This document shows positions 1 to 27,559 of a stretch of DNA of 37,358 nt, in pieces. Each line of letters begins with the position of its first letter. Positions within the stretch are counted from its first letter, which is position 1. The notes under the pieces are model-generated. The model made no database searches. It saw only the letters and a list, made by a program, of their open reading frames with translations, and was not told where the DNA came from. Position numbers and translations under genes: made by a program. This DNA comes from Folioceros fuciformis (lineage: Eukaryota), in contig JBNGIO010005973.1 of the NCBI GenBank assembly GCA_049999805.1, positions 192,154-229,511 of the forward strand, given 5' to 3'.

Positions 1-2
1 CG

Positions 3-1883
3 AGAGGGGGGCTCGAGAGCGGGGCTGCGGCCAGGGAGAGCGTGGCATGGCCATTGCTTGTGCGGAGCCTGGGGAGCGTCGTGGAGCGGGAGACGCAGGG
101 TGCGAGGAGTAAGGAGGATGGGGAGGCGGGGCTGCTGAGTACCAGCACTGGCAGTGCTATCGTTGCGACCAGGTCGAACTGGGTGGAGCGGGACGCCGTT
201 TCCTGGGCCCTGCGGGCCTACCTCTGTAAGCACAAGAATGTGGCGGCCGCGGACGCCTCGCGGATAGTGGAAGGTGCCCCTTTGTTCAACAGGAAGGTGG
301 TGGCGGCTGTGAAGGCGGGGATCGCGCCGGGGAGGTTGGGGCACACGAGCCATTTGAATGAGGAGACGTGTCGGCAGCTTGCCGAAAATATGTTCATGCG
401 CGACGACGTGAACGTGCTGGAGCCGTTTCTGGAGAGCTTGGGAGTGGATGCGGAGGATTGCGAGGATCTGGCCGGCTCGGTGACGCTGGACCTGGCCGAG
501 CTGGTGGCCAGCATGAAGGTGCTGGAGGAGGCGGGGATCCAGAGGAAGCAGATTTGGCGGCTGCTGGAGCGGGATCGGAAGTTGCTGAATTGCTCGGCCG
601 CTGATTTGGAGGTGGGACTGAAGGCGCTGTCGGAGTTAGGGTTTTCGCGGCGGGAGATTAGGGAGATCGCTTCCAAGTGTCCCGCGCTGATGCGGATAGG
701 GTTGGCGGATTTGGCAGTAGACCTGGATGAGGAGGATGGGGGTCGAGGTGAGGAGGTGGTTGGGAAGGACGGGCTTGCTGTGGTGAGGAAGAATGTGCGG
801 TATCTGAAGGAAGAGTTAGGGTTTTCAGGGAAGCAGATCATCAAGCTTGTGCAGGGCTACACCAAGACGTCCAGGTTTCTGTTGAGCGACATGGCCGTTG
901 TGATGCAGCCGAATGTGGAGCTGTTAAGGGAGATCGGGCTGACGAATGAGAATATCCGGAGAGTTTTAGGGTATTCTCCGGCAGTGATGAGCTTGACGCG
1001 GGGCAACATCGCTGACAAGATCCAGTATTTGGAGAGCTTGGGAGTGGACTGTGTCGGGAAGGTGATCACCCGGTTTCCTGCTATCCTGCAATACAACATC
1101 ACCAGCAATGTGGGACCGAAGATTGAGTACTTGAAGAGCCTGGGAGTGAAGTCGTCGGGGTTGGGAAAGGTGCTGACGCAGTGTCCGTCCTTGATGGGGT
1201 ACAATCTGGATGGGAAGCTGAAGCAGACGATAGCGTTTTTGGAGAGTCTGGGGCTGAAGGGGGACAGGTTGGCAAGACTCATCGTGACCAAACCGCCGGT
1301 GCTCTCGTACGCTGTGGATGGAAGCTATGCGGAAACGAGGGAGTTTTTGATGAACCTTGGGTTGGAGCCGGGGACGAAGGCCATGGCAAGGGCCTTCGCA
1401 TCTTCCTTCACCAGCTCTGTTGTGGCAATGCAGGCTCGTTTTGAGTTTTTTGTTGCCAGGGGCTTTCCTCGGGAGTGGGTGCGGGATATGCTCAGGGCCC
1501 AGCCGTCGCTGCTGTGTTTGAGCGAGCGCAATCTTATATGTAAACTGAATTTTTTTGAAGGCGTGGTAGACTTCTTTGATATGCCTCCATCCAGGGTCGC
1601 CATCTTCCTCTCCTTGAGTCTTGATGCCAGGGTGAAGCCCAGGTTCAGAGTCATGTCATGGCTTAAACAACATGGTCATCTGCCCATGAATTACTCCTTC
1701 CCACGTATGCTGGACGCGAGTGAGACAAAGTTTGTCAACAAGTATGTCACCCCTTATCCTGGGGCTCTTGCAATTTTTCGGGAAGCCCGACAAGCATGTG
1801 GCCGTGGCGATCGCGTTTCACAGCAAGATAGTGAGACGACTGAAAAGTCTTCCGACTCGGCACTGTTGTATGACGTTTCCTAG
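3..1883 (+). CDS. mTERF-family (organellar transcription termination factor-like) protein, 5'-partial, single exon in the window
   Basis: The frame of the 42..1883 ORF has no stop back to the window edge. It contains ~30-aa mTERF repeats (LGFSRREIREIASKCPALM, IGLTNENIRRVLGYSPAVMSL, VGKVITRFPAILQYNITSNVGPKIEYLKSLGV) and the typical plant mTERF C-terminus (LSLDARVKPRFRVMSWL...SETKFVNKYV). Confidence 0.9.
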   Translation, partial: RGGLESGAAARESVAWPLLVRSLGSVVERETQGARSKEDGEAGLLSTSTGSAIVATRSNWVERDAVSWALRAYLCKHKNVAAADASRIVEGAPLFNRKVVAAVKAGIAPGRLGHTSHLNEETCRQLAENMFMRDDVNVLEPFLESLGVDAEDCEDLAGSVTLDLAELVASMKVLEEAGIQRKQIWRLLERDRKLLNCSAADLEVGLKALSELGFSRREIREIASKCPALMRIGLADLAVDLDEEDGGRGEEVVGKDGLAVVRKNVRYLKEELGFSGKQIIKLVQGYTKTSRFLLSDMAVVMQPNVELLREIGLTNENIRRVLGYSPAVMSLTRGNIADKIQYLESLGVDCVGKVITRFPAILQYNITSNVGPKIEYLKSLGVKSSGLGKVLTQCPSLMGYNLDGKLKQTIAFLESLGLKGDRLARLIVTKPPVLSYAVDGSYAETREFLMNLGLEPGTKAMARAFASSFTSSVVAMQARFEFFVARGFPREWVRDMLRAQPSLLCLSERNLICKLNFFEGVVDFFDMPPSRVAIFLSLSLDARVKPRFRVMSWLKQHGHLPMNYSFPRMLDASETKFVNKYVTPYPGALAIFREARQACGRGDRVSQQDSETTEKSSDSALLYDVS

Positions 1884-2340: not shown

Positions 2341-5300
2341 TTATGTACAGCCTCCAGTATCAACAGCTCCGCCGTGCCGCCTCTCCTTCTTGACTCTGGT
2401 TTCCTTGGGGTCGAAGCCGCCTTCAGATGCACCATAGACAGCCCAGTCTGGTGTGGGAGCCATGTAGTCTTCACTACTGAAAGATACCCCCGATGACACC
2501 TAGCACAAACATCGCATGCACTTCTGTCAGCAGAAAGACCTGCACCTGCACGTTAACACGCGTATTGCAACAGGTTGATCGTAGTTACCAAGTCATGGAA
2601 TTTTTCGTAATCAATCCAGGTATGCCACTTTCCCCCAACTTTGAACTTGGACTCCTTGGCGAGCAGGACACAGCAGGAATGAACATGCTCACAAGCTAGT
2701 CCATATTGTCCTCCTGATTCTGTAAGCAGAGATTCTGCAAATGCTCGGACGTCTTCATGCCAAGGGACATTCTCCATGGTCAACGAAGAAGTTGCAGTTC
2801 TGGATAGGAAGGCAGACAAGTGCATCAGTATCCGGACATCTTCGAAAAATTAAAAAGGTTGACAAAATCAGCACTTACGAGCCACAATATGTCACACCCT
2901 TGATCTCTATGAAGTCAGGTTCACCGAGCTGAAGAAGGTCGGCATAAGCCTTCACCTCTTCAGTGTTCCAGCCCTTGACTAGGGTTAGTCGGTACACGGT
3001 TCTCTGCTTTTTGCCACGAAGAGACCGCAAAGAGTCCTGTTGTTGTGCGACAGCGAGCGTTAGGCAGTCCTCGTACGACCTTCATCACAATCGGCAACAG
3101 GACATCCAACAAATTCAACAGCCTCCTTGAGCACGTACCACGAACCGCTCCCAAAAGTCTGCAAACAGAGGTCTATCTATTGCTTTCAACCTTTCCTTGG
3201 TTCCCGCATCAACACTTACATATAGCTGGCAGAACCACAGAATCCCATTGTTAGTCATATCTTCTCTACAGCTTCACACAGCATGCCGTCAAGAGATGGC
3301 AGAGCAGCTTACCTGAGTTATTGGATCTAGCAACAAGATACGATCAGGGAACTGAGCATTGGTGACCAAAAAAGTGGAAATTCTTCGCCTGTGAAGTTCT
3401 CCAACTAGTTTGTTAATCTCAGGGTACATAATCGGCTCTCCAACTAGCGACAGTGCACAATGCACAGGTGCCATTCCCTCTGCTATGCGCTCCGGTTTCA
3501 CACCTGTAACAGGGGCAAACTGCTAAGCATGCCTGCCCTACATCCATTCATCCTATTTCTGTATCAACCATACCACCTGGAACCCTTCATACCTGGAACG
3601 CCTTTCATCTGCTTTATCATCCGAACATGCTGATCGATTGCTGAGTTTACTATTTCTAAAGGATCATCCATCTTCCAACGCCAAGACCGTCCCACAGGGT
3701 TTGTATGGTGTCTCCAGCAGAAAACACATTTGTTTGCACACGCTAAACTTGGAGTTGTTTCCATACACCTGATAGCAATGCCAATCGTTAGGCACCTTTT
3801 CACCTTAACAAAAAGAAAAGCCATGGGCAGTGGTTCACCAGCTCGCTCAAGGAAAAAACATCACACTGACCGGTGGCTTTCAATTCCATAAAAAGAATGC
3901 TTGTAGCAGCCACCACGGCCGCGAAGCTGTGATTTTGTCCAGCGGCACAGCTTGACTCCACTGTGTGAACCAATGACTTTGTATCCCTACAGTCAAACAT
4001 AAAAGCTCATAAGAAGCAGATTACAGCAACTGGGGCACCTCTTTGCCGACCTAAATAAAGGTGAAGCTCTACCTGCTTCTCCAAGCTGGCACGTATCATG
4101 GGAGTAACCATTTCCTTTGCAACATCGTTGTTTGCTTTACTTACAGAAGAAACGGTGGTCTTCAGGCTAGCTTCATAGACTGGTTTATTGCCAACAATTT
4201 TCCTCACAATACCCCGTTTCTTAGATGGACCCTCAACTGACTTTGGGAACTTGCCAGCTATATCCTCCACATCAACTAAGCTGGAGCCTACACTCTGTTT
4301 GTCATCCACCTCTTCGTAATCACTGGTCACATAACTCTCCACCTCCTCGGCAGACTGGAGAGAATCTGCAGTGGCACTGCTGTAATTGGAGTCCTTGAGA
4401 TCCTCTCTTCCATCATTGTGTTGGAGTTTCTGCAGGAGATCATGAGCCCATGATGTAAACACTTCCTCCACATTGCCTTCATCTTGATCTCCCTCTCCAA
4501 GTTTCACAACCCGGATAGCACCAAGCTTGGACATGTTTTCATCAACAATTTTGCCCACTGCGTTAAACGTGGAGCCATAAGCACTGCTCCCGACCCCGAA
4601 CACAGCATACCTGCCGAGAAACACAGGACTGAAAGTCAGCAACTGAAGACTCAAGACCCTTTTATTACACCAAAAACTTACGACGAAGTTCTGTCCAGGT
4701 GTAGGAGGACTAAAACCTGCACTCACACAGCAGGCCTGAGCCAACCCTGAAGTCCTTTGCACTCTCCTCGAGCCAATTGGCCAGAAATGCTGCATTCTTT
4801 GGGGCCCTGCCATCCTCCCAGGTAGACGTGACGAAGATCACCAGAGTCTCCTTCGGCAGGTCCTCGGGTTCATACACCGCCGCATTCACCAGCTCGACTG
4901 GAAAATCCTGATCCAACAGCTGCTGATACAGCCTCTCAGCTAAACGCTGAGCTGTGCCCGTCTCCGATCCGAACAAAACTTTCGTCCTGGAATGCTCATC
5001 CTTCACACTCAAGTAACCATCCAACAATTCAGTCGGCACCGCAGCATAAGGCAACCCACCCTCTGTCCTGCAACATCCTGCACCGCAGCCCTCCGCCTGC
5101 TCCTCTGCTTCACCACCGCTTCCACCAACCCGACTGGACGAGCTCTCAGACCTTTGATTCCGTCTGCGAAGCGGCACAAGGTACTCACCCTCGTCTTCAG
5201 ACCGGCTCAAAATGTCCACTACCTTAACCTGCTGCCCAATCGGGCTATCCCACTCGTACTCGTCGTCGTCTGTATAATTGCCCTGGTAGCTGCCGGAAAC

Positions 5301-5630
5301 GCGCGTTACCCCATTCCCAGTCGCTGGCCATGCGGACGCCGTACAGCAGCGAGAACCCCTGACATCCGGAGCTACCTTCTTGCAACAATCTTCAGTGGCT
5401 GTTGGCTCTTCCACTTGGTCCTCAATCGACGGCCCCCGCTCCTTCAGCTCCGTCTCCTTCTCCTCCTCTTCCGCGTGCTTTTTCTGCGGGTCTTCCTGCA
5501 CCTGGATCGGCTCAAGCTCAATGGCCAGCGGAGCAGCCTTCCGGTACCGCACCACAGCCCAGATTGAAACGGAAACCGCCACGATCGAGGCGCACTTCAG
5601 CACGGTCAGGGTGGCGGACCGCATCGTCAT
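2341..5630 (-). CDS. TYW1: tRNA wybutosine-synthesis protein 1 (flavodoxin + radical SAM 4-demethylwyosine synthase), 9 exons, 849 aa
   Basis: Exons joined by GT-AG with consistent phase: 5630-4717, 4610-4073, 3986-3871, 3768-3593, 3503-3313, 3225-3139, 3036-2879, 2799-2589, 2499-2341 (2550 nt). Motifs: N-terminal hydrophobic anchor, flavodoxin LFGSETGTA and FGVGSSAY, GYKVIGSHSGVKLCRWTK, radical-SAM CANKCVFC, HCALSLVGEP, EIKGVTYCG, YGASEGGFDP. Confidence 0.95.
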
Positions 5631-6040
5631 GCTCTCAGCAGCAATGGCGGGCCTTCCATGCAGCTAGTCTGTGAAGCACCGCCTGCACGTTGTGAACCCC
5701 AGTGAGCCAGAACGAGCTAGTGCCGATCAAACCAGATCCTCAAGAGCGCGCAAAAATTCAGCGTTCCAGCTGATGAGAAATGGATATCCTTACCAGAAAC
5801 AGAACGAAGAAAATCGCTTCATTCAGAGACATACAGACATTCAGGTCATAGGGTGCTTGCAGAGTCTCGCGGGTGGGAATCAGCCCAGATCCCTTCGGCC
5901 AATATCATACACTCAGCTTGCATCGGAACGTTTATTAGGGTAACTCGAGGGGAGAGTGTGCCGAACCGGTGGACATGGATTTCATGGCCCTCCACGATCG
6001 GTTTCCTCATCCATGTAGACATGTATGTATGTCAGTAGAA

Positions 6041-7460: not shown

Positions 7461-8768
7461 GGAGCGTCTCTGCTAGGAGCTTGCAGCTTATAAGTTACGG
7501 CGAATGTAGTTTCCGGTCCTCCTGAGCTGTTCCCTCTTCAAAGGAATTATGGATTCCGTGAATTCCGTGGTTTCTTGAGGGCGTTCGGCAGTCTCCACTA
7601 AGCGCTCCTGCCGTTGGACGCTTCTTCAAGTGGTTGATGCGTATGAAATTCTTCGGCCGAGTGGTTGCCAATTTGTCCTCAGCGAAGCGTCCATTGGACG
7701 CTCCCTCAATTGTTTGATGCCTTTTGCTTCTCCTTTGTTCACAAACGCTTGATTGAAGCCGATCTCGTCCTGCTCACCCGCCTTCCCGCCTCGCATGTTG
7801 CCTATCGACGTCATTATTTTTCATTAGTACTGTAATATTATGTTATAATGGACGCTGTATGCAGTGGGTTGTGTCGGAAACGAAGTGCGAAGCGGTGGAG
7901 CGCAGCATTACGCTTCGGCCTGTCCTTCACTCTTCAGCTTACTCGCCACTTAACGCTGCCGCCTGAGTACACTTCAGCTTTAAATGCAGCTGCTCAGGGG
8001 CAATCCGTCCATCCCCGATTGCTTTCTCGCTTTCTGCATTGCGATTGTGGCTTCCAGGGAGCTTAAGCATAGCGTCGGTCTGTCTCCAGCTTCATCTGGT
8101 AGCGGAGTTGCGACTGGCGTGCCATGTTCTTGGTCGGAGGATTTCGTGGGGTAGGCGGAACTGGTGGTATATTTTGTTCCAGTTCGTTCAGTTGCGTACA
8201 CCGCCCCGTTTGTGCCAACTTCATTTGTCGTTGTGGGCCTCCACATTGCGTAGCAGCACTTTCCAATTTTGCAACTTTTTTGCTGTGCTGCGCTTTTGAG
8301 AAAGCCAGCGCTGTGGATGCAGGGTGCTGTCGAGATGCCGTAAGCATTTTGCCTTCCTTCGACAGGTTCTAAGCTCGTGGCGGAGGATAGCAGAGTCGGA
8401 ATTGTTGCTGGGACATTTGCGGTCAGCGTGTTCTCCAGTTGTCTTTTACTATCTGCGTTTCATCTTCGAATATCTGAGTGTGCCTTTTGACTGTCTGTGT
8501 TTCTCTTCCAGCAGAGACTTGAGGAAGGGAGCAGTACTTTCTGAATAGATAGTGTGAAACGCTGACGCACGTTCTTATTCTGGAATTAGTTTGGAAGAAG
8601 GTATGGGCCTTTGTTATCCAGGGCTGTAGCAAGCAATTAGTCTCCAGGGGTCTGTTGTAGTTGGCCTCAACTGTGAAAGAGCAATGACGGCGGCACGGGC
8701 CATGGTCGTCGCTGATATTCTTGGGTTGCTTTCCTGTCTGTATCCAGAGTAATTTGCCGAAGCAATTG

Positions 8769-11700
8769 ATGGGAGGGGGTTCGACGGGCTGGCAGCAGCC
8801 AGAACAGGGCCTGCCTGTTTACAATCATCCAGGCATGGCTGTCATTGAAGAGTCCCCTCGAGCTCTTTACCCACTCTCGGGTGGTGGCGATTGCCCGACT
8901 GAGGACTTCGTTGAAGCCTTCGACGATCCTATGATTGAAGCGGATGCGGAGGTCGCCGTAATTTCTGGAACCGGTGATGCTGTCATGCCTCAGCTTGGGG
9001 GCGCTCGGCTCTGTCTTGAAGAAACAAGGGTCGTGGATGTTTTCGGCGACTCTGGGACGCTACTTCCCCATCTGCCGGAGGGAGGCAGCTACACAGAAGG
9101 AGGTACTCCTGGGAATGAGACTGATGGCACAGTTGTCCATAAGCTCATGCATGTCACCTCTGACAAGCTTGACTTAAGCTTTGTGGAGAAGGTGATCGTA
9201 CCTGCTCATGAGATCCAGAATCTCTGCAATGCTATATCACCATCCGCAGCTTCACTTCGTGATGGCAAGAGCCAGTTGGACTTTGGTCTCTTAAACAAGA
9301 CCACTATGCAAGTGGTTGGAATGTATGGGAGCAAAAGGGTCCTCGTTGAAATCTTCAGGAGGCTGGGCTTGTCGTGCGTTGTTACTCTGTTGAAGGGAGA
9401 AAAGCTGGAAGCTGGTATTTATGGCTTCCGGCATGAAAGGGTTTTGTACGTGTTTTACTGGCATCTTGGGCAGCGTATGGACGAGGCATCCAGAAAGGAT
9501 GTTTCTTGTAATTTCATTCGCTATGTTATGGATTTATCTGGAACAGTTTATGTGTGTCTGGATGCCCAGGATATGGAGGCTTCCTTAGAGACTCGCCATT
9601 CAAGCGCTGGTACAAGAAAGCAACGAATTCAGAGGCTCCAAATTTCTCTGGTAAAGAAGTCGGAGAACGACTTGAAGATGAGTAGAGGGTTTGTCATATC
9701 TCCTTCCAAAGGGCTTCCTAACGGATGGTTGGAAGGGGCACAGTCTAGTACTACTGAAAGCAGAATCAATTTGACGCCCAGGCTTTTCAGTTCTCTTCAT
9801 CGTTGTGCTGTTCTCACAGCAAGACGTTGCCCTCCTCGAGCCGTCCATCACAAGCAGTCTGAAAGGCTGGCAGTGAAGGAACTCCCAGGGCTATTTCGGG
9901 CGTGGTCAAACAAGTATAATGTCGATGTAACGCAGTTACCAGATGCAGACTTGATAAACTTAGTAGAACTTGCTGATCTGGAAGGAAGTGATGACTATTG
10001 GGCGTTGATGGACGACGTCGAGCACAAAAGAGAAGCCCAACGACAGAAGTTCTGGAAGATGGAAGAGTTGTTAAGAACAGAGGAAGCCAAAGTTCTGAGC
10101 ATTTTGGGAGGAGCTCAGCAGGCCTATCTCGAACTTTCTCATCCTTGGGAGGAGACGTTTCTTAGAAACACTGCTTCATCCTTCCCAGTCGACCAGGACA
10201 AGAAGTGTGCCCGGGGTACGGCAGAACAAGGTGAGCCACAAAACACCTCCAGCAAAGCGTCTGCAGACAACCAGCTGCACGACGCACACATTGCGTTGTC
10301 CAATCTGTGGAACCGTGAACGTGACAACCCAGGATCGGATCCTCCATCTTTGATCCTCGTTGGCTCTGAAATCCAGATTCTTTTGGACAAAGGGTATTAT
10401 ATTGAACTTGGTGGCGAGGAGGAGTTTGTGATATTAAGTTCCAAACCAAAACACGGCCCTATACTATATGGGGAGGAGTTCGTTTTAAGAAAGAAACGCA
10501 ACAGTGAACCCTTTCCAGGACAGATGTTCATTGCGCATTGTGTGGAAGGCGTTTGTCCGAATGGCCCGGTGCTGTCATCTGATTATGTCCGAATTGAAGT
10601 CAAAGGTAATGCTCGCCAGTCTGCATTTTTTGAGAACACGCAGAAGACACACCGGTTGAAACTCGTGTTGCGAGGGGGCTCATCCAAAGCCATGCATGAC
10701 TGGTTGGCGTCGTACGGGACAACGGTGTTTCCCACACTGGACAAGCGAGTGGTGGACCTCGCCTTCGTGATGGGCAATCCGAATTTATTTGGTCCACACG
10801 TTTGTGCGGAGACTTTCTTTAATGTCTGCACCCTCTCCGAGTCCGATTCCCCGTTGTCGGGTTTCCAGAAGACATTTTCCCAAGAGAGGATGCATGCGCT
10901 TATTTCGAAAGCGAAACAAGCCCAACCGGATTATTCCTCTGAACGCAGGCAGGATTATCTCCGCAACCTTAACTCGTCTGAAAGACAGATGCTGATTGGA
11001 GTTTGCACCAAGGTGTATGAAGAAGCCTGCTCGCAGTTCTCAAAGAGAATAACTTGCATGGTGAAGGATTTAGTGACTCCCATGTTGAAACAGAGGATGG
11101 AAATGGAAAGGACTGTTGGGTCTGATTCACTGGAGAAGGATTCCGAGAGAGCACGTTCTGAATGTCTCAATGTCTTGCGAAGCCGACTCTCAAGTGGAAA
11201 GCTTCCAGATAAGCGCACCCTGGCAGTCAAAAGTTGCACCTTATGTACCAAACGGTGGAGTATTACCCGCTACTTCCGGAAGGCTCCGAAGGACTCGGGG
11301 GACGAAGAGGTTGAATTACATTTCGTCACCGAGGAAGTGGAAAGTGAACAAGTGGAGTGGAGAATGGTGGAGCTGACTCCGATGAAGAAAGACCTGGATG
11401 CTTTGTTGCAAAGGGATACACATGTTGTAGTTCCAGGTTGCTCTGCAAACTATAAGCTAATTGACGTGGATCCTACGTTTCAGAGACTATCCGCTGTATT
11501 TCCTATCAAGTCAGGCGAAGTACTTGTGTTTGTGGAAGATTACAGAGAATCTGCGATTCACCTCTACCTGATTCCCAAGCTGGGTCCAGACTTAGCGTCA
11601 AACCCGATCAAGACGTTCCGGAGAGGCCGGGACCTTGTGGCAGTGGATGAGGCAGCGAGGCTTGTAGCTTTCTATGACAAGGCTTTCCTCAAAATCAGCA

Positions 11701-14700
11701 TCTTTCGGTTTGATGAAAGCTTTCGGCATTTTGAATGGATTGGTGTTGAAATTCTGCTGTCAGATTATGTGGGCAGCAGGACGTTAACGTCCATGATGTT
11801 CATACCTGGGAAACGAGAGATTCTTCTGGTTGACAGCGACCTAAAAGTGCGTGTATGTGAGATAAGCCTGCCAGCCATGATGAGGCCAAGACACATTGTA
11901 CTGCCAGGTCCCGACCACAAGATGTGTATTAGCCCAGATGGGTCGTGCCTCCTTGTTTTCCGTAGCTCGGAAGCTAGGAAGGAGGACGTGCTGCATGATA
12001 CCGAGATTGAATGTGAAAGGGACAGTCAGAAAGCTGGGGAGTGCAATGACGACGAGGGGCTGACGCTTGACGTCTATCTTCTTGACGGGACAATGTCTCT
12101 TTTGAAGACGTTGAAGGTGACCGACATCTCCGGTGATGTTCGAAGAATTGATGTGAGCACAGTCGCATTTGGGTCGCAGAGTCATCTGATCCTTATCGAC
12201 ACATTGCGACCAGACAGAGGGATCTGTTCACAAGTCCTGGAGGTGACGTCGGCCTCTGAGGTTTGCCAGCTCCAAGCGCTGAGCAACACGGGTAACAAAG
12301 ACGACGTTGGAAGCACGAGCGAGGTGCAGAAGAATGTAAGCTGTCCATCCTTGGATTATGTGCACCATGTCTTTGACAAATACGCTGTCAGTCCTCCGTT
12401 GGTCTCTGGAGAAAGGGAGCTTTGTGTGCACGTTCTCTTGGAAGGTGAGCCGGAACCGAAGGCGTTCCGGTTCAAAGAAAAGTGCGTTGGGTACCTAGAA
12501 TCCTGTATCGACAAGCTTAAACGCGACAAGGGTAAGAGCTTCTCTAAGTTGAGCCTATCATTCGCATCAGACTTTGTAAGCAGATACATCTTCAAGCAGA
12601 CCCTCGTTGGGACCTGGGAAACGAGGAATTATGTCTATATGGGAGATTGGGTGCGCCTCCTGGTGTCCCTGGTTCCTATCCAGATAGCCCGAGCAGAGAA
12701 CAATGGGTTGAGGCCTCTTATCGACGGCCTGCAAATTTCATCGAACATGAATTACGCCGACGCCGTGGGACTCGCGGAGGCATTACGGTTTGGTTTCTAT
12801 GATTCCGTGCTAACACAGTGGAAGGGTCCTGTCAAGGTCATATCCTCGATGGGTAAGCAAAGCAGTGGGAAGTCGTATCTCCTGAACCACCTTAGTGGGT
12901 CCTTGCTGGACGTGGCAGGAGGACGGTGTACTGATGGTGTTTGGATGACCATGCGTGCTTCCAATGGCTGCCTTTACGTGTTACTCGATTTTGAGGGCCT
13001 GGGCAGCTTTGAAAGGAGCGAGCAGGAGGACATGTTGCTCTCCATTTTGAACGCGGCGATGAGTAACATGACCATTTTCAATAAAAAGGTAACAAATTCT
13101 ATCCTCCTGAAGGCAGAATGGGTCAGAATCCGGATCATCCAGGAACATAACACTTGCCTTGTGATGAACCCAACACTCAGAACTGACGCTGCTTAACGTC
13201 ATGATCGCAGGACTTCCATTTAGACAAGGAAACGGAGTCCGTGTTCGAGCGATTCCAAAATGGTGTGAGCATTGTAAAGGAAGACAGTCGCCTTTTCAAG
13301 GGCCTGTTCTACATGGCCATCAAGGATGTAGACATTGCTGATATCGAGGACCTGAAAGCAGAATTCTACACAAAGATTCAGCAGATCTGCAGCAAGTCTC
13401 AGGATAATTTCCTGACCAAGATGTATGGTGGCCAGGTGGAGGTTGCAGCTATGCCTCCATTCCAACGCGTTGACTACCACGACAGTGTGGCTGATATTGC
13501 TGCAGCAGTAGACGAAATAAAACCTATCCATCACAGCGGGAAAAGTTTGATGGTGGACTTGAAGTTGGTGATTGCTCAAATAAGTGCCAGGGACTGGTCT
13601 CCCCTTGACACCAAACGATTAGCTTTGAGACTGGAGCTTCTGAAAATGCACCTCATCACGGCCGTTAACCTTGGTCGGCTAGCGAGTGACTCTGATAATG
13701 TCCTGGTAAATTTCGAGACTCAAGAGCCAATTGCTGAATCGGCTTTACTCGTTGAGGGTCGAACCTTTAGCCTTGGTGACACAGGCTTGGAGCTTTCGCC
13801 TCGGCAGGAAAGCCAGGTCATGGGCGATGTTCTTGAGAACTTGAGGCAACACTTCCAGAATGGCTACCGGCGGATAGGTGACGATGACGAGGTATGGCAT
13901 TCAACATATGAGAAGTTCCTTTTGGCACTGGCAGACCGACGGAAGCTGAGGGTTTTAGAGTGGCTCCGGTGCAACACATCTGAGTTCCAGGATGATGGAG
14001 ACGTTCAGAAACTTCTCTTGGAAACGGCTGTTGTCCTGGCAGAATTGAAGCAAAGGCTCTCACTGTGCAGCAGTAAGTGCAAAAATTGTTTCCTGAGATG
14101 TGTTCGGGAGAAATCCCACCCAGGTGAAACATCGATGCACTCGTGTTTGGGAGGCCACCGCTGCCAAGAGAGGTGCTCTTTCTGCCTTATAGAATGCCCG
14201 GAGCAGAAAGAGTTCGCGAACTCCTGCTCGGATCTCAGCGGACACGAAGGTCCACATGACTGCAAGCTGAAGAGTCATACATGTGGAGAGGATTGCACCT
14301 TCATGCGCAGGTCTTCGAATTGCAACGAGTCATGCGCACTGAAGCCTGGGCATGCTGGAGACCATGTATGCAACACCAAACAGCACATCTGTGACCAAGG
14401 GTGCTCGCTTTGCGGGTGCAAAAACTCATGTATGATTTCCCTGGATTCTGGGGACCATGACCGTCACATTTGTCAGGAGCGAATGTGTCCGATGGATTGC
14501 ACAATCAAGGGCTGTAACAGGAAGTGCGGTTCGGAAGACCATTTTCACTCCCTTAGTTCCGATAGACACCTATGCGGAAATGAGCACACATGCCCTGAGA
14601 AATGCGAGTCCCCTGGAATCTGCCATATTACGACAGAGGTCGTGACGGTGTCCAAGACCTTCATAGGTAAGAGATCGGCCTTTGAGTACGAGCATGTTTC

Positions 14701-16030
14701 ACAGCAGAATGGGATCAGGAAAGCGTGTTGCATTGCCATTCCTCCGGGGGAGGAAACTCACTCTGGCAATCATTGTCATACCTCGAATCCGAATGCAGTT
14801 CACTTCTGTGAGACGAAATGCTCAGCATGTGGATACTTGTGCAATTTACCGATTTGTCACGCTGGTGTCCACGACACCACACATGGGAACATGCGGGATG
14901 TCCATTTCGCAGCAGAGGCCGCGCATATCGACCTGGAGGACAGAAAATATGAATGGGGGGAGTCCGGAAAAGCAGAGATGTGTATGATGCACTGTAAGGC
15001 TCAGGGCAGAGGGCACATTCACCTCATCCGATGTCTTGCTCATGCAATTCCCAAGGGACCTTGTGCTGAAGGATTGTATGATGGAGCAAGACATCAGACC
15101 CAGGAGTATGGTCCGGACAAAGGTGTTGCAAAAGATGAGCTTTCCCATGCAGCTTATTGGAAGCAAATGAGGTTCAAAGATCCGTGCAACGATGAAGATC
15201 AGAAGCAGTTCCAGCTGTGCAACCATTTTTGCCGTTCGGATGAACATGTTCCGGCTGCAACTTCTGGGAAAAATTCCACTGAACTTCGGTCCTATTGTAC
15301 AGAAAAAATGTGGCACGCCCCAGTTTCTAGGACTGGATCTGAATCCTCATCAGCAGGCTATGTGACGGAGGACGGACATTCCTTCGTCTGCAACCATCTG
15401 AAAAACACTGCGAACCATGTCGTGTTTGTCATAGACAGATCAGGCTCAATGGGATCCTCTGACACCAAACCAACACTCGCAAAGTTCGCTCACAGGTTCA
15501 ACAACCGGCTGGGATGTGTGTATGAAGCCATTCTTCGTTTCATCGTGACTCGCAGTCAAGCAGGGCAGCAAGATGTGGTGTCAATCATCCTGTTTGACAC
15601 ATTTGGTTCCATTGCGGTGGAACTGCAACCGATATCTGAGCACCTCGTGGACTTGCTGCTCTCTTTCAGTGTCGGAGGAGGGACCACTTACTCAAGCGGA
15701 CTCACCTTAGCTGAGCAGGTTTTGCAACGGGGGTTGCATGATCTCTCCATGCAAGCCAAGCATCCTGCTGTTGTGTTTTTGAGTGATGGTGGAAACAACG
15801 GAGGCAGCAACCCTCTGACTACTATCACAAAGATGATGGATATGGATCACCGTCTTGTATTCCACACAATTCTCTTCGGAAAAGATCATGTGGACCAGGA
15901 TATCCTTCGGAGAATGGCAAAAGCAGGGAACGGAAGCTTTCAGGTCAGTATCGACGAAGTGCAGCTAGCCAGGAGTTTTGAAGGTCTGGCCAAAAGCTTG
16001 CGTCCTAAGGTTTCATCTCTGATGAATTGA
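8769..16030 (+). CDS. Giant (~2379 aa) GB1/RHD3-type (GBP/VLIG-like) GTPase with Cys/His-rich repeats and C-terminal vWA domain; exons 8769-13088 and 13211-16030
   Basis: ORFs 8721..13196 and 13241..16030 join through a phase-0 intron 13089-13210 (AAG|GTAACA...TCGCAG|GAC), giving TIFNKK-DFHLDKETESVFERFQ. G1 GKQSSGKS (12852), G2 RCTDGVW, G3 DFEG, G4-like IKD; Cys/His repeats 14066-15400; vWA VFVIDRSGS...GGGTTY...VFLSDG. The first in-frame ATG is at 8769; the true start could lie in an upstream exon. Confidence 0.88.
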
Positions 16031-16237
16031 CAACATCAAGAGAGGTGAGGAACCGGTGCAACCACACGTCAAAATTTGGATAAAATCCGGACTTCAGCTT
16101 TAAACGTAGTTTAGCTGAGGCGTGCACCCTCACCATGAACTTTGGATAGAGTCCGAACCTAAGCTTAGCATAATTTGAAGTTTTGGAGTGCGATGATCTA
16201 AAACCCTAGACTGTTAGTTACAAATCAGGGTACGTGT

Positions 16238-17445
16238 TAGCCTCCCTTGCGGTTGATAAGGTTTGGTAGGCTCGATTGGAGCGCACAGAAACATAGTCCT
16301 CGTGGAGACACCACAGATTGCTTGCCTAAAGTTGCCCGGAGTGAGATGAAACAACGGACAACAGTTGAGTCAGGTAGGGATGAGAACAATAGGCAACAGA
16401 CACGAATGTTTGTCTCTCTCCGTCAATTCTTGCTACTTTCTGAAGGGCCAACACCAATGTCGTAGTCTTATAACCATGTTTGCAGTTCCACGCTGCGCGC
16501 ATAGCAATGGGAACGGACACAGTATGCTTGACGTCATACGTTCAAATCTCCATATCGTCGGAGCCCGATGCCGAGGTGAGCTGAGCATTCAGATCGTGGA
16601 CATGCAACACCCTATAATGTAAACAGTAGATAGCGCCGGCAGTACAGACGACAACATGCTGAGGAGAAACCCGGCGCTGCAAGAGGGTGAAGTGCACACT
16701 CCTGCAGTCCATCGTTTCAGCCTTGAGCAGTAGACAGTGTCCATGACCGGATGGCGCCGGCCTTGGCAATGGTGAAGAGCAAACACCTTGAACCCTTGGC
16801 CTCCTGATGCAGATGCCACCTGCACGTTGAAGTCGTGACCCATCTCTGTCTCAGGGTTAGTTATCTTGAGCGCAGGCAGCTCACAGTAGGTCTTGGTGAT
16901 AGGACTAAAGCACAAAAGTGTAATGGTCTGACTGCCCCCTCCCACACATCCATGTCAACAACAACCACATACCCATCGGCTGTAAAGGCAGTCAAACTCC
17001 TAGAGGTGGATTGCTTCATGCTCATATCGTTGCGTGAAAATGCCACCCTTACCTCTATGGAAGGAAGGACAAGTCTAGACCCGGGAGCCCTTTAATTGTG
17101 GGGCTTGAGCACGGCCCCAAAGCACACACCATTCGACTACCCTTGAACCTCTCCATAAGCCCATGTTCCTCCACCATGTGCCATTGTCCACCAAGTTGGA
17201 ATTACAATGGCAAGTTGGAAAGCGCTTGACAATGGCAAGGACGACAACATCTTCAATATAATATCAAGCGGGACGTTCTTGCAGAGTGACATATCCATTT
17301 CCTTGCCACCGTCACCCTCCTTCGGAACTCTGGCTAAAACAGCTAGCAGCAGCGTTCTTGCAGAGTGACATATCCATTTCCTCGTCACCATTACCCTCCG
17401 GAACTCTGTCTAAAATATCTAGCAGCAACGCAGATATCTCATGCG
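16238..17445 (-). pseudogene. F-box gene pseudogene, tandem paralog of 18217..19449
   Basis: Near-identical peptides to the neighbouring gene (LTAFTADGYVVVVDMDVWEG, FSPITKTYCELP, SVHFTL, C-terminal YQP) split across several frames by indels, with a degenerate F-box (LCKNVPLDIILKMLSSLPL). Confidence 0.85.
17274..17430. repeat. Two-copy ~79-bp tandem duplication at the 5' end of the F-box pseudogene
   Basis: CGTTCTTGCAGAGTGACATATCCATTTCCT... starts at both 17274 and 17353. Confidence 0.85.
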
Positions 17446-18216: not shown

Positions 18217-19449
18217 CTAGAGCCAACGAGGTTGATACTCAAACAAGAAAGCCTTGCCAGCCGTGGAGGGCCCAACTTTGCATGATACCCATCTACCTTG
18301 CAGAATGTGATAGCATAGCCAATCTTCAGGTTGAAGGCCCTGATTGATGTTCCGGAGTGCCAAGCAAATCATATCACCCGCGACTCTCAGACCCTGGATA
18401 TAAAACATGTTCAGGTCATCCGAAATCGGAAGCTGGGCGAACGGCGTGGTGCACACTATCTCACACTCCCACTCTCCGTTCTTTGTATTCAGCTTCCGGA
18501 TCTGCAACATCGAATCGATTCCTATGACCACGTACAAATTTCCTGCATGCGCACACATCAATGGGTACGGATACAGATTATACTTGACATCAAGAGGTTC
18601 AAACTTCCATGTGAGCGCTCGATGGCGAGGTGAGGCATTCAAATCATGGACACGCAGTACCCTGTAATGTACAGAGTAGATAGCGTCGGCAGTGCAGATG
18701 ATGACGTTTGGAGGGAAAACCCTGCGCCGCGTAAGGGTGAAGTGCACACTGGCCGCATCCAGATTGCGCCCCGCAGTCCATCTTTTCAGCCTTGAGCAGT
18801 AGACAGTGGCCATGATCGGGTGGCCTCGGAAATGGTGAAGTGCAAACACTTTGAAGCTTCGGGCCCCTGATGCAACAACCTGTATGTTGAACTGCAGTTC
18901 TATCCCCGGTTCAGGTTGGGTGATCTTGAGCACAGGCAACTCACAATACGTCTTGGTGATAGGACTGAAGACACAGAAGTGGAGTAGCTTAACTGACCCC
19001 TCCCACGCATCCATGTCAACAACAACCACATACCCATCGGCTGTAGCGGCAGTCAACCTCCAAAAGGTGGATTGCCTCATGCGCATACTGGAGCGTCGAA
19101 AGGCCAACCTGTACCTGTCTGGAAGGAACAACAAGTCTAGGCCCGGGAGCCCTTTGATTGTGGGGCTCGAGCACGGGCCCAAAGCACACACCATCGCACT
19201 ACCCTTCACCCTCTTCTTCATCACATGCTCCTTTAGGAACTGTCCTGAAGTGATGAACTTGTACCACTTTTTGCACACAGTCGCACATTGGAACGCTCGT
19301 GGCAATGGCAAAAACGAGAGCACGCTCAATATAGCCTCATCCGGGAGACCCTTCCACAGTGTCTTATCGACCTCCTCACCATCATGGGCATCATTCAAAA
19401 CTCGGTCTAGAACACCCAACAATAGGATCGTGTTCCACTCCAGGTCCAT
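18217..19449 (-). CDS. F-box protein with putative beta-propeller/kelch-like C-terminus, intronless, 410 aa
   Basis: F-box motif LWKGLPDEAILSVLSFLPLPRAFQCATVCKKWYKFI; VFSPITKTYCELP and VYCSRLKRW segments typical of plant F-box-associated domains; C-terminal FEYQPR. Confidence 0.88.
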   Translation of the reverse strand: MDLEWNTILLLGVLDRVLNDAHDGEEVDKTLWKGLPDEAILSVLSFLPLPRAFQCATVCKKWYKFITSGQFLKEHVMKKRVKGSAMVCALGPCSSPTIKGLPGLDLLFLPDRYRLAFRRSSMRMRQSTFWRLTAATADGYVVVVDMDAWEGSVKLLHFCVFSPITKTYCELPVLKITQPEPGIELQFNIQVVASGARSFKVFALHHFRGHPIMATVYCSRLKRWTAGRNLDAASVHFTLTRRRVFPPNVIICTADAIYSVHYRVLRVHDLNASPRHRALTWKFEPLDVKYNLYPYPLMCAHAGNLYVVIGIDSMLQIRKLNTKNGEWECEIVCTTPFAQLPISDDLNMFYIQGLRVAGDMICLALRNINQGLQPEDWLCYHILQGRWVSCKVGPSTAGKAFLFEYQPRWL

Positions 19450-20128
19450 GTCTCCAAAGCCTTAGATCATAATTCAGCTGTTCCAAAAAAGAAAACCATG
19501 TCTAAGCATGCAATCATGTGCGCATTCAATAGGAGAAAGTGATATCCAATAACATCCACCAAGTATAAGAGAATGAAGAGTTAGTACAACTTACAATAAC
19601 AATCATCAAGCCTTGTACAAAGGCTGTCCAAGATGAAATGTTGCATCTAGTCTAACATATATAGAGCTGAGTCTATGTTTATCGAGAAAAAAAGGGAATC
19701 TTGATTCGATTGTTTAAGCAAGTATTAAATACATGCAAAGTTCCCGAAGGCAAACTCTATCAAAAAGGGTATCAAAAACACTACTTGTAGGACTATAATA
19801 TATATCATTTAGATGTAATAGATAACAAGAATACCCTTGTACATTTAAAGTGAAGGAGAGGTAAGTCAATAAAGAATGTGTGCACATATGGTGAATAGTA
19901 GGAGTACATATATTATATGTTGAGCTTCTTTGGCACGGGTGGTAGTCGACCTTTTTATTATTCCACATCATGATATTTTAGGAGCATTAGGCAATTCTTG
20001 TAGTTCTCGATTGTAAGCTTTTTTTTTTTTTTTTTGTTATTCCACATGGTGACATTTTTGGACGTGTTCGCAGGGGCTAGCCTCTTTTGCCATTGGTAGA
20101 TGGAACAAACTCTTGCTCTTATCTTTGG

Positions 20129-22363: not shown

Positions 22364-25300
22364 ACCTCCCACTTAAAGGCCAATTTACCTTCATAGGAGA
22401 GTGGTCTACCTCATGCCCATGAGTGTCCGAGCTTGTGCGAATTGCTCCGTAGAGAGCCCCTTGGTAAGAACATCTGCAGGGTTCTGATTGGTGTGAACTT
22501 TGACAAGTTGTACCCTCTTGTCTTCCAACGCCTCTCGATTGAAGTGATACTTCACTTCCACATGTTTGGCCTTCACATGAAACACTGGATTCTTCGCCAA
22601 TTGAATAGCACTCTGGCTATCACAATGCAACACTGGCAGCTCAACCTTGATCCCCAAATCTCCCACTAAACGAGCAAGCCACATGGCTTCCTTGCAAGCC
22701 TCAGTTGTTGCACATACTCGGCGTCTGTGGTAGATAGCGTTATGCACGATTGCAAACGAGACCGCCATGAGACTGCCCCTCCAGTGCACATGAAGACATA
22801 ACCTGATGTGGACCTCCTTTTGTCCATATCCCCTACATAATCAGCATCCGTATATCCCACGACAAATGCATCTTCACTACCAAAACATAAGCACAAAGCT
22901 TTCGTACCATTTAAGTACCTCATAACTCCTTTCATTGCCTCCCAATGCTGCCTGCCAAGGTTTGAGATAAACCTGTTAACCACTCCCACTGCAAAGGCAA
23001 TGTCAGGACATGTAGCAATCATTACATACATCAAACTCCCTACCGCTGATGAGTATGGAACCTTCTCCATTTCAGCTTTGTCCTCCGTAGAGCTTTGGCA
23101 ATCCTTGCTCGAAAGTTTCACATATGGAGGCAACGGAGTACTCAATACCTTCGCCTTCTCCATGTTGAAACGTTGAAGCACCTTGTTAATGTATTCAGTC
23201 TGAGACAAATAAAGCAAATGCTTATGTCTGTCTCCACGAATATGCATGCCAAGAATATGGCTTGCCTCTCCCAAGTCTATAATGTCAAAGCAAGCATTTA
23301 GCTTTGACTTCAATGCTGAAATCTCATCACTGCTAGTCCCAACAATTAGCATATCATCCACATAGAGGACTAGAATGAGCAAGCTTTCATCCTTAGCTTG
23401 CTTCGTATAGAGGCAATTATCCTCATCGCTATGCTTGTAGCCTTGAGAAAGCATAAATGAGTGGAACTTGTAATACCACTCCCTGGGTGCTAGTTTCAAA
23501 CCATAAAGGCTCTTCTTTAACCTGCACACCAGATTCTCTTTGCTCTTCTCAAAGAAACCCTATGGTTGCTGCATGTATACCTCTTCCTGGAGATCACCAT
23601 GCAGAAATACTGACTTCACATCCATCTGGACAAGTTCCATGTCGTCCCTCGCAACTAGAGGAAGAACACATCGCAAGGTGGTCATTTTGACAACTGGTGA
23701 GAAAATCTTATCAAAGTCAATACCTTGCTATTGCTTAAAACCCTTAGCAACCAATCGTGCCTTGTACTTGGGTTTGCCACAATGGGGTATGTCCTTCATC
23801 TTATACACCCATTTGCATGGCAATGCCTGCGTGCCCTTAGGCAACCGAACCAACTCCCAAGTTTGGTTGTGATGGAGCGAATCCATCTGCGACTGCATCG
23901 CCTTCTCCCACTTGTCCTTGTTATTTACTGACATGGCCTCTTGATAACAAGAGGGCTCCCCACAATCCATTAGCATGACATAATCAAGAGATGCAACATA
24001 CTTGTCAGGAGGCCGTGAGATCCTTCCTGACCTACGAAGCACTGGCGCCTCGACCGGAGCTGGTTGCACTCTCTCCTCTTCTACAAGTGGAGGAACTTGT
24101 TCCTGCACATCACGACGTTCAACTTGCGCGGGATGGTCAAATCCATCTTCTTGGAAGACCACCCGTCGCACCTCCACAGTTGGAGTAGGCTTCTTGTGCA
24201 TCTTGGTCTCATGGAAGAACACATCATTGCTGCGAACAACCCTCTTGGCCTCTGGATCCCATAAACGGTATCCCATCTCACCAGATTTACCATAGCCAAG
24301 AAAAATACATTTTCTTGACTTGGAAGCCAACTTGTCCTGAAACTCCTTCGAAACATGGTAGAATGCCTTGCAGCCAAACACTCGTAGATGCTTGTATAAC
24401 GGCTTCTTTCCATACCACATCTCCTCTGGAACCTGCTCATCCACAGCCCTATTAGGAGATCTGTTAAAAAGATGCACTGCGGTAACCACTGCTTCTGCCC
24501 AAAATCCGTTAGGCAATCCAGAGTTTGACAACTACGCATCCTCTCCTGGATGGTCCTGTTCATCCGTTCAGCCACACCATTCTAGGGAGGAGTATATGGC
24601 GTAGTCAATTCTTTCTTGATTCCCTTGGAATCACAAAATGACTGGAAAGCCTTCGAAACATACTCTCCCCCATCGTCTGTCCTTAGACACTTCAGTCGGA
24701 GGCCAGACTGATTCTCCACAAGGGTGACGAATCTCGGAAACATTGTCACAACATCTTCCTTTTTCCTCAAAGGATAAACCCACACCTTGCGTGAGAAATC
24801 ATCTATGAACGTGAACAAATAGGATGCACTGCCTAATGATACAGTGGGCATAGGTCCACAAACGTCACTGTGAATCAATTCAAGAGGTTTACTTTTGTGT
24901 TTACCTGTTGCTCCATGTGGTGACTTCGTCTGTTTCCCATACAAACAGTGTTCACACACGAAGAAATCGGAGAAGTCAAGATCAAGGACGTAACCAAAAC
25001 GAGATAGTATCTTCATTCCTTTTTAAGACATATGTCCTAAGCGACAATGCTACAAGGAAACACTTGGCTTTTCCATTACACAAATCACATGATCCTTGAC
25101 AATGGTTACCTGAAGTGAGTACAAAGTGCCACACTTCAAGCCACGAGCTAATACAAGAGAACCTTTGGAGATCTTCCAAGAATGATCTCCAAACCAACAG
25201 TGGTAGCCAGCGTCATCCAACTGCACTGCGCTAATCATGCTTTTTGTCAACTTCGGAACATGCCTAACATACTTCAGTACGAATGAAGACTTGTTGTCGA

Positions 25301-26892: not shown

Positions 26893-27146
26893 GGAGGAGG
26901 CAAGGAGGAGAGGAGAAAAGAGTGGTCACACTTTCACACAGAGTCTCACAATGCAAGGGAGCTATAGGGGGTATTTATACCCTCTAGAAAAGCTCCCTAG
27001 GAAGCTTCACAAGAAGCACACAGGAAGCTGTGCAAGAAGCTTCCTACAGAATAGCTTAAGCTAATCTAAACTAATGGTACTTAATTAGACACTAATCTTA
27101 GACTAAACACATTAGTTTAAGTACATTGGGCTTTATTAACCCTACA
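26893..27146 (-). repeat. 5' LTR of the copia family 1 element, lacking its last ~40 bp and the primer-binding site
   Basis: Aligns to the other LTR copies, but the TGAAGGATCGCTA end and the TGGTATCAGAGC PBS are absent. Confidence 0.88.
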
Positions 27147-27559
27147 ATCTTCTGGCGTGCAGAAAATGGCAACAAATTTTGATGCTCATGATTGTGATTA
27201 TTCCGTCTGTATGTTGTATGTATAAACATGCCGTTGCCTACAAGACAACTACTGTGTTGCTGGAGCGGCAATAGGGAGCGCCTACAGTGTCGTCATAGCG
27301 AGCGAGCTTGTTGCAAGGCACATGTGCTTCCCCCACTGGTGCCTTGCGCTTGGTGCCGGCACCCAGCTCTGGCACTGGTGCTTGTGGCGACGGGGCAGGA
27401 GCCTAGCGCCCCTGTGCGAGGGGCTACGGGCTGGCGATGCTCGCTTGGCACCCGCCGTGCCTGGCGACACCCCCGGTCGGAGCCTAGCGCCCCCACTAAG
27501 GCTCGGCGCCCCCACTTGCGAGGCTAGCGGCTCCATTGGGGGCCTTTTGCCCCCCCCCT

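Follow-up and report, generated by a model that had tools for sequence, protein, structure and literature searches.

A giant GTPase with a Cys/His array and a vWA domain in Folioceros fuciformis, and the eukaryote-wide family to which it belongs

The stretch of DNA discussed here – 37,358 nucleotides of Folioceros fuciformis, called the window at its full length (GenBank assembly GCA_049999805.1, contig JBNGIO010005973.1, positions 192,154 to 229,511 of the forward strand) – contains what, judged from its sequence, is one intact two-exon gene for a giant GTPase, the splice resting on homology. The 2379-residue protein is soluble and consists, in order, of an acidic tail, an α/β domain, a variable helical and β region, a β-propeller, a large GTPase (G) domain, a helical stalk, a Cys/His array and a von Willebrand factor A (vWA) domain with a metal-ion-dependent adhesion site (MIDAS). 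By its alignments and tree position, the gene is the land-plant branch of an old, eukaryote-wide family that has kept the GTPase, MIDAS and Cys/His ligand residues. The best overall explanation would be an assembly machine of the cytosol that is gated by GTP and probably serves defence, a reading which we consider slightly better than an even bet. The novelty lies in recognising the family, how widely it ranges and how its N-terminus is built; the sequences themselves were already public as hypothetical proteins.

Gene structure and the GTPase-to-vWA core

Two long open reading frames (ORFs) on the forward strand run, from stop to stop, over 8688–13196 (1502 codons) and 13205–16030 (941 codons). 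The first ATG, at 8769, has an in-frame TGA upstream (8685–8687), and the second frame closes with a TGA at 16028–16030; once the intron is removed (Table 1), the two contribute 1440 and 939 residues to a product of 2379. Six of six full-length plant homologs align by tblastn on both sides of the junction with adjacent residue numbers (1096/1096 in homolog P0003, 1453/1453 in P0004), the first alignment – which covers exon 1 from about 9120 – ending at 13088 and the next beginning at 13205–13208. The joined text agrees without a gap with the family consensus FNKKDFHLDKETE, and exon 2 aligns over its full length with 11 plant homologs at 47–57% identity. The start codon at 8769 is supported because the MGGG N-terminus that it opens (8769–8780) is common to five of the 12 plant homologs inspected (P0004, P0005, P0007, P0008 and P0012), ranging from liverwort to gymnosperm. 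The highest 19-residue Kyte–Doolittle mean anywhere in the protein is 1.44, and no membrane segment is found.

That the ORFs are two separate genes, or a decaying pseudogene, lying head to tail by chance is extremely improbable: the intron separates G3 from G4 within a single GTPase domain, so that two genes would each hold half a domain, the six homologs are continuous over the junction, both halves sit in one chain in more than 100 full-length relatives, the joined frames are stop-free across 7.1 kb with every motif intact, and the intron ends are canonical and in phase 0. On the other side stands the observation that none of 12 window-identical contigs from the only run found to contain this DNA, which we call X1 (its kind is guessed, and no RNA run is on record), bridges 13089–13210; as these contigs cover parts of 9198–12643 and all of 13239–16683 and show no joints, this counts neither way.

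Two side observations concern the ends of the gene. The Gly at position 2 of MGGG could be an N-myristoylation site and could serve as a membrane-targeting signal; the Thr at position 6 of the window protein fits the N-myristoylation consensus, whereas the Pro of the Ginkgo-like and Cryptomeria copies does not. At the other end, one X1 contig of 3445 nucleotides (13239–16683) extends 653 nucleotides beyond the stop codon, which would be 3′ untranslated sequence if this run of guessed kind is RNA.

By its motifs and profile matches, the G domain is a member of the GBP/RHD3/URGCP group, closest to URGCP/VLIG. The motifs characteristic of this group within the dynamin superfamily (G1 GxxxxGKS, G2 Thr, G3 DxxG and G4 K/R-D) are all present. 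In Pfam, exon-1 residues 1351–1438 match URGCP_GTPase (PF25683) with an E-value of 1.8e-8 (34 bits against a cut-off of 55, for a partial domain), RHD3_GTPase with 7.9e-5 (22.6 bits against 42.4) and GBP (PF02263) with 1.2e-4 (21.8 bits against 21.1, across 88 residues). The same families recur in the 11 plant homologs – URGCP_GTPase in 10 (best 6e-13), RHD3_GTPase and GBP in nine each, alongside VWA_2 in all 11 – and URGCP_GTPase is the top-scoring G-domain family for the window protein and its plant homologs, yet its score for the window protein stays beneath the curated threshold. When the family profile was compared with the PDB, vWA proteins (7.9e-12), GBP2 (1.3e-8) and Sey1 (6.1e-8) were found, with GBP2, GBP1 and GBP5 matching the G1–G3 stretch at 1.3e-8 to 1.8e-5. 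The GBP C-terminal helical domain family was not found in the window protein or the 11 homologs (Pfam, E up to 1).

These motifs have been retained across the family: the Gly, Lys and Ser of G1 in 62, 59 and 58 of 63 members, the Thr of G2 in 61, the Asp, Glu and Gly of G3 in all 63, and the Lys and Asp of G4 in 53 and 60 of 61. The stalk that follows is seen in an AlphaFold 2 (AF2) model of exon 2 built with 12 sequences. A predicted complex of two copies of the P0004 G domain (residues 1335–1650) with GTP scored 0.00, which gives no verdict and is not used as evidence.

At the C-terminus lies a true vWA domain with a complete MIDAS, as profile, fold and metal site all agree. Exon-2 residues 737–908 pass the Pfam cut-offs for VWA_2 (37.4 bits; cut-off 27) and VWA (30.5 bits; cut-off 23.8). 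The AF2 model of exon-2 residues 733–933 is confident, with a predicted local distance difference test score (pLDDT) of 80–94, and resembles solved vWA domains at a Foldseek E-value of 2e-9 and a VIA-align Z of 23.2 (root-mean-square deviation (rmsd) 1.9 Å over 175 residues). Among 61 family members, the MIDAS residues Asp, Ser, Ser, Thr and Asp are kept in 55, 53, 57, 54 and 52, respectively.

Between stalk and vWA domain lies the Cys/His array, in which four units of the form HxCx3-4HxCx3C start at exon-2 residues 310, 349, 385 and 453, a fifth unit between them matching the spacing of about 36 residues. Across 61 members, drawn from plants, fungi, oomycetes, algae and animals, 69 of its 84 Cys/His positions stay Cys or His in 90% of the sequences or more. 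Such conservation, in a protein with neither signal peptide nor membrane span, points to zinc binding, and by simple division the array would have the capacity for roughly 17 four-ligand sites. It matches no Pfam family at E up to 10 (the HMMER filters drop weak matches to very short models), no PDB sequence by phmmer at E up to 10 and, usably, no named Atlas cluster, and its AF2 model is unconfident (pLDDT <50). At motif level only, the unit bears a likeness to the NF-X1 type of zinc finger, which no Pfam or PDB match accompanies.

The original prediction had described a single spliced protein of about 2379 residues with an intact G domain of this group, a helical stalk, some 450 residues of Cys/His repeats and a MIDAS-bearing vWA domain, and had set it apart from RHD3 for want of a transmembrane hairpin; each of these parts has held up. 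What that architecture left undescribed is the N-terminal 1340 residues, for which a conserved α/β domain and a β-propeller are predicted.

The N-terminal half

An AF2 model of residues 118–1317, made from a checked 32-sequence alignment, reached a mean pLDDT of 75. In it, residues 816–1170 are confidently predicted to fold as a β-propeller. All 50 matches listed by Foldseek for this model are propellers or propeller-containing proteins of the WD40, NHL and sialidase types (best E 2.5e-6), and VIA-align placed NHL, WD40 and sialidase propellers at Z 13.5–15.4, interleaved with large-GTPase chains. A Prp19 WD40 profile matched weakly (E about 0.1), and Pfam gave neither a WD40 nor an NHL match. 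Because NHL, WD40 and sialidase chains score alike, the NHL likeness of the propeller is unspecific.

The large-GTPase chains in the same comparison (Z 13.6–15.7, 206–226 residues aligned) are led by Sey1p (Z 15.7, rmsd 3.6 Å, 226 residues), atlastin-3 (14.9) and atlastin-1 (14.8), followed by GBP2 (14.4), SMG9 (14.1) and GBP1 (13.9). VIA-align reports only the first and last aligned residues for this 1200-residue model; since the aligned ranges begin at model residues 1–5, and 206–226 residues exceed the 120-residue C-terminal segment, the matches are read as falling on the α/β domain, which may possibly have a large-GTPase-like fold without a P-loop. No Walker A motif occurs in its sequence, and hhalign against the true G domain gave a probability of 0.1%. 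An internal duplication was considered and rejected, the hhalign probabilities of both the α/β domain and the propeller against the G domain being 0.1%. Pfam searches with N-terminal pieces returned sub-threshold noise only (Costars, Her-1 and 7TMR-HDED).

Few family members align with the variable middle, where identity to plant homologs is 17–21%. To judge from the alignments, the front half (residues 118–1170) evolves faster than the GTPase-to-vWA core, with 17–37% identity against up to 82%. Blocks at about residues 121–330 and 900–1080 are nonetheless present in distant non-plant members as well, so that the whole build, and not the core alone, appears to be old.

Table 1. Features of the window, with mean identity to 11 plant homologs where calculated. 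Residues are numbered in the spliced protein unless marked ex2 (exon-2 numbering).
Feature	Position	Strand	Residues	Mean identity (%)	Remarks
Exon 1	8769–13088	+	1–1440 (1440 residues)		First ATG to splice donor; ends IFNKK
Intron	13089–13210	+			122 nucleotides; GT..AG, phase 0; begins GTAACA, finishes TCGCAG
Exon 2	13211–16030	+	1441–2379 (939 residues), then TGA stop		Opens DFHLDKE
Acidic Gly/Pro-rich tail	8769–9119	+	1–117		Starts MGGG; 20 acidic versus 3 basic residues; homology begins only at about residue 118
α/β domain (block A)	9120–9938	+	118–390	34	In plant and non-plant members; AF2 pLDDT mostly 75–92
Variable middle	9942–11192	+	392–808	17, 21 and 18 (three segments)	AF2: helical segment, small β domain, helical segment with a helix of about 70 residues
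Predicted β-propeller (block B)	11214–12278	+	816–1170	37	AF2 pLDDT about 90
Pre-G α/β segment	12354–12719	+	1196–1317	41	AF2; holds the family-wide LVPIQIARAENN block
Large GTPase domain	12771–13630	+	about 1335–1580	82 (first half), 57 (second half)	Pfam and PDB profile matches; split by the intron between G3 and G4
G1 GKQSSGKS	12852–12875	+			Motif checked at coordinates
G2 RCTDGVW	12924–12944	+			Motif checked at coordinates
G3 DFEG	12987–12998	+			Motif checked at coordinates
G4 IKD	13319–13327	+			Motif checked at coordinates
Helical stalk / middle domain	13628–14110	+	ex2 140–300	43	AF2 helices ex2 131–154, 204–218, 226–255 and 263–283; pLDDT 67–91
Cys/His array	14051–15415	+	ex2 281–735 (455 residues)	54	47 Cys, 37 His; five units of about 36 residues, then an irregular half
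vWA domain	15407–16009	+		52	Pfam, AF2, Foldseek and VIA-align
MIDAS DRSGS	15434–15448	+			Checked at coordinates
MIDAS Thr	15683–15685	+			Checked at coordinates
MIDAS Asp	15785–15787	+			Checked at coordinates
mTERF-family gene	3–1883	+			Runs off the 5′ end; 153.7 bits
Flavodoxin-domain gene	4007–5663	-			At least two exons
F-box gene	18217–19461	-
Copia-type long terminal repeat (LTR) retrotransposon frames, two sets	22666–31490	-			gag, zinc knuckle, Pol beta-barrel, SH3-like and RVT_2; broken into several ORFs

Range, phylogeny and conservation of the family

Compared with a database of named sequences, exon 2 retrieved 13 long proteins, all hypothetical or uncharacterised: 11 from land plants (Ceratodon, Calypogeia, Riccia, Selaginella and seven from Cryptomeria), one EukProt entry whose prefix Gb we take to stand for Ginkgo, and one unnamed ENA entry. 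Orthologs of mosses, liverworts, Selaginella, a fern and gymnosperms had already been deposited as hypothetical proteins. An exhaustive HMMER search of 1.84 billion representatives gave 1309, 696 and 330 matches at E-value limits of 1e-3, 1e-10 and 1e-30, respectively, many of them 2000–3000 residues long and spanning the entire exon 2 at 30–38% identity. Automatic UniProt names of relatives include 'VWFA domain-containing' and 'VLIG-type G domain-containing'.

Searches started from distant members widened the range. The protein of the fungus Gelatoporia (P0060) gave 510 matches; among the 120 listed, 116 come from mushroom-forming basidiomycetes – several of these species having several paralogs among the matches listed – and four are unnamed. 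P0025, which adjoins Galdieria, gave 115 matches, among them red algae, Mesostigma, a fern, Taxus and Cryptomeria, as well as dinoflagellates, many oomycetes and the protists Stereomyxa, Pelomyxa and Reticulomyxa; the animals in this set are the sponges Oscarella and Sycon and the acoel Convolutriloba, with four paralogs. The original prediction had presented the architecture as a plant one, and this does not stand: the GTPase, stalk, Cys/His and vWA core, together with the N-terminal blocks, is also present in fungi, oomycetes, red algae, Mesostigma, dinoflagellates, Amoebozoa, sponges and an acoel. The matches listed, from searches that were word-seeded and length-limited, include no name of an angiosperm, of Physcomitrium or Marchantia, of a yeast or of a vertebrate. 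Scans of prokaryotic and viral contigs with two peptide patterns each, which are weak evidence, gave no confirmed relative.

A quick IQ-TREE analysis (LG+G4) of 61 exon-2-equivalent sequences over 910 columns – omitting P0028 for its internal repeats and P0344 for coverage below 60% – unites the window protein and 15 land-plant sequences in one group, with a Shimodaira–Hasegawa-like approximate likelihood-ratio test (SH-aLRT) value of 100. The same value supports a single group for each of fungi, oomycetes, Mesostigma, red algae and dinoflagellates. Among the land-plant sequences, bryophytes and the lycophyte roughly come first, followed by the fern and lastly by two gymnosperm paralog groups, which fits vertical descent; the window protein is closest to that of the moss Ceratodon, at 58% identity, so that the tree places its source with land plants other than seed plants, or at least not near any of those listed. 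In Cryptomeria japonica, at least 11 protein clusters lie on two contigs, nine on one of 862,687,481 bp (SUGI_0690960 to 0691410) and two on one of 680,319,432 bp (SUGI_0197900 and 0197940), and the closeness of the locus-tag numbers hints at tandem arrays.

In some protist members, further Pfam families are found at other positions, presumably RING, B-box, ankyrin, C2, protein kinase and AAA/helicase; P0026, P0031, P0289, P0291, P0345 and P0284, all unnamed ENA or EukProt entries, are those taken to have RING and B-box. The combination of these presumed domains with NHL-like propeller matches lends some protist members a TRIM-like look. The Mesostigma members P0035, P0296 and P0052, of 3438–3767 residues, stand apart from the land-plant clade in the tree; their extra families, which we take to be an AAA+ ATPase and a superfamily-1 helicase, would mean two kinds of NTPase per chain.

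In the literature searched, to which supplementary tables did not belong, no study of this GTPase/propeller/Cys-His/vWA family was found, and a term look-up in two papers on conflict systems returned nothing on it; a preprint on GVIN1 alone concerned a relative. The earlier statement that no characterised plant gene is known to have such an architecture agrees with this.

Possible mechanism and role

The assembly machine proposed above might work as follows. By analogy with GBPs, atlastin/Sey1 and GVIN1, binding of GTP would pair the G domains of two molecules, and hydrolysis would shift the adjacent stalk, resulting in a nucleotide-gated assembly of the protein on a target. The target would be chosen by the fast-evolving N-terminal half, including the propeller, while the conserved putative zinc array and the MIDAS would grip an acidic side chain of a partner or substrate, in the manner of machines that combine an NTPase with a MIDAS.

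In vertebrates, cell-autonomous immunity relies centrally on large dynamin-like GTPases, the GBPs being the classic case and GVIN1 a recent addition; interferon control is confined to vertebrates. The best G-domain family match is to GVIN1/VLIG-1 and URGCP, which are of similar size (about 2000–2400 residues). Human GVIN1 is reported to be an interferon-induced giant GTPase that coats cytosolic Burkholderia, with two large-GTPase domains predicted on either side of a helical linker (10.1101/2025.03.24.645074). On this description, the two GTPase domains would parallel the possible P-loop-less G-like α/β domain and the true G domain of the window protein. GVIN1 is not known to have a β-propeller, a Cys/His array or a vWA domain, whereas in the window protein all three are seen or predicted.

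With GBP1, GBP2 and GBP5, whose family profile the window protein just matches above the cut-off, the expected common principle would be GTP-dependent pairing of G domains; the window protein is four times longer, adds the propeller, the putative zinc array and the vWA domain, and is without the GBP C-terminal domain. The plant proteins GBPL1–3 are reported to be nuclear-pore and condensate proteins, and they differ in build. RHD3, Sey1 and atlastins are related through profile matches to RHD3_GTPase and Sey1, and part of the N-terminal model finds its best structural matches in Sey1p and the atlastins (Z 14.8–15.7); these GTPases have a transmembrane hairpin, whereas the window protein does not, which makes membrane fusion of their type impossible, and its RHD3_GTPase score lies well below the cut-off.

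Midasin/Rea1 and the MoxR–vWA pairs likewise join a nucleotide-driven motor to a vWA domain with a complete, conserved MIDAS. Known remodellers combine an NTPase with a MIDAS in this way, the MIDAS gripping an acidic residue of the substrate. Their motor, however, is an AAA+ ATPase, as opposed to the dynamin-type GTPase found here, and beyond the vWA fold the sequences are unrelated. The vWA domain also matches those of TFIIH p44/Ssl1 and proteasome RPN10 (4wfq, 8amz and 8j4a; Z 20–22), at 13–17% identity and hence at fold level only; p44 couples its vWA domain to zinc fingers. Unlike the window protein, p44/Ssl1 and RPN10 are small subunits of fixed complexes without a GTPase.

Within the proposed mechanism, a role in cell-autonomous defence or another genetic conflict, which relatives and evolutionary pattern suggest by analogy, is a tentative assignment that falls a little short of an even chance; it is likelier than a housekeeping role. 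The role put forward in the original prediction, that of a single-chain sensor, GTPase and effector aimed at pathogens or membranes, is likewise hypothetical. A defence or conflict role is favoured because GVIN1 and the GBPs, the closest relatives with published work, are reported to coat bacteria in the cytosol, because the named phyletic range is patchy, with no angiosperm among the 13, 120 and 115 listed matches, because the family has expanded in several lineages (at least 11 Cryptomeria clusters, the mushroom paralogs and four acoel copies), and because N-terminal modules have been swapped. That the role is something other than defence, conflict or housekeeping remodelling is unlikely, though by no means far-fetched.

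Several points weigh against a defence machine, in addition to the unbridged intron mentioned above. The full-length homolog P0004 reaches 31.5 bits with URGCP_GTPase, under the cut-off of 55, and the score of the window protein, too, is below it (34 against 55 bits), so that the transfer of function from GVIN1 is weak. The land-plant branch is old, with an order that mirrors the species tree in broad outline, and the core is well conserved, at 50–82% identity; both also fit a conserved cellular job. The absent names suggest loss in angiosperms, Physcomitrium and Marchantia, of which word-seeded and length-limited searches are no proof.

The strongest rival is a GTP-driven housekeeping remodeller that would act on membranes, organelles or large complexes and have nothing to do with defence, comparable to RHD3/Sey1/atlastin at the endoplasmic reticulum or to midasin in ribosome assembly. 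The G domain matches RHD3_GTPase (7.9e-5) and Sey1 (6.1e-8) too, plants share a conserved core with fungi, oomycetes and animals, the land-plant clade roughly tracks the species tree, and the pairing of NTPase and MIDAS is that of known remodellers. We nevertheless consider it distinctly unlikely: the protein has no transmembrane or amphipathic anchor, RHD3_GTPase stays at 22.6 bits under a cut-off of 42.4, a core factor would not be expected to be missing as often as the absence of angiosperm, Physcomitrium, Marchantia, yeast and vertebrate names from the listed matches implies, and the family shows lineage-specific expansions and swapped N-terminal modules.

A zinc-finger-centred sensor or ligase, in which the array would bind nucleic acid or act in ubiquitin-type transfer – in the manner of ZNFX1 or TRIM proteins – and the GTPase would be a mere switch, is very unlikely. 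It would account for the 69 conserved Cys/His positions in repeated HxCx3-4HxCx3C units, with their presumed NF-X1 resemblance, and would fit the protist relatives with presumed RING and B-box domains, the propeller matches to the NHL domains of TRIM2, Brat and Lin41 (Z 14–15) and the appearance of TFIIH p44, which joins a vWA domain to zinc fingers, among the top vWA matches. Yet the array has neither a Pfam or PDB match at E up to 10 nor a named Atlas cluster, its fold was not obtained (pLDDT <50), sialidase and WD40 propellers score as well as NHL ones, and the window protein itself is without RING or B-box in Pfam.

A more far-reaching version of the defence reading, which we regard as rather unlikely as it stands, would see here an ancient, eukaryote-wide family of innate-immune giant GTPases, from which vertebrate GVIN/VLIG and URGCP descended, which flowering plants and most animals lost, and which conifers, mushrooms, oomycetes and an acoel expanded; its members would combine, in one chain, a part that forms a GTP-gated coat or signalosome, a pseudo-GTPase, a propeller, an array of about 17 zinc ions and a MIDAS clamp. 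If so, non-flowering plants would hold a defence arm invisible in angiosperm models. A defence role as such would link the GVIN/GBP immunity of animals with an ancestral system of eukaryotes and expose a plant immune component absent from Arabidopsis and crops, and even a housekeeping remodeller would be a new GTPase–MIDAS machine. In any case, a more elaborate relative of these GTPases exists in non-flowering plants and most eukaryotic supergroups, with catalytic, metal-site and putative zinc-ligand residues conserved, in a family amenable to genetics in mosses, liverworts and mushrooms.

The neighbours of the gene (Table 1) are ordinary plant nuclear genes and transposon debris with no link to it, the Copia-type elements being probably degenerate or nested. 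The first 1 kb of the window is GC-rich (0.61).

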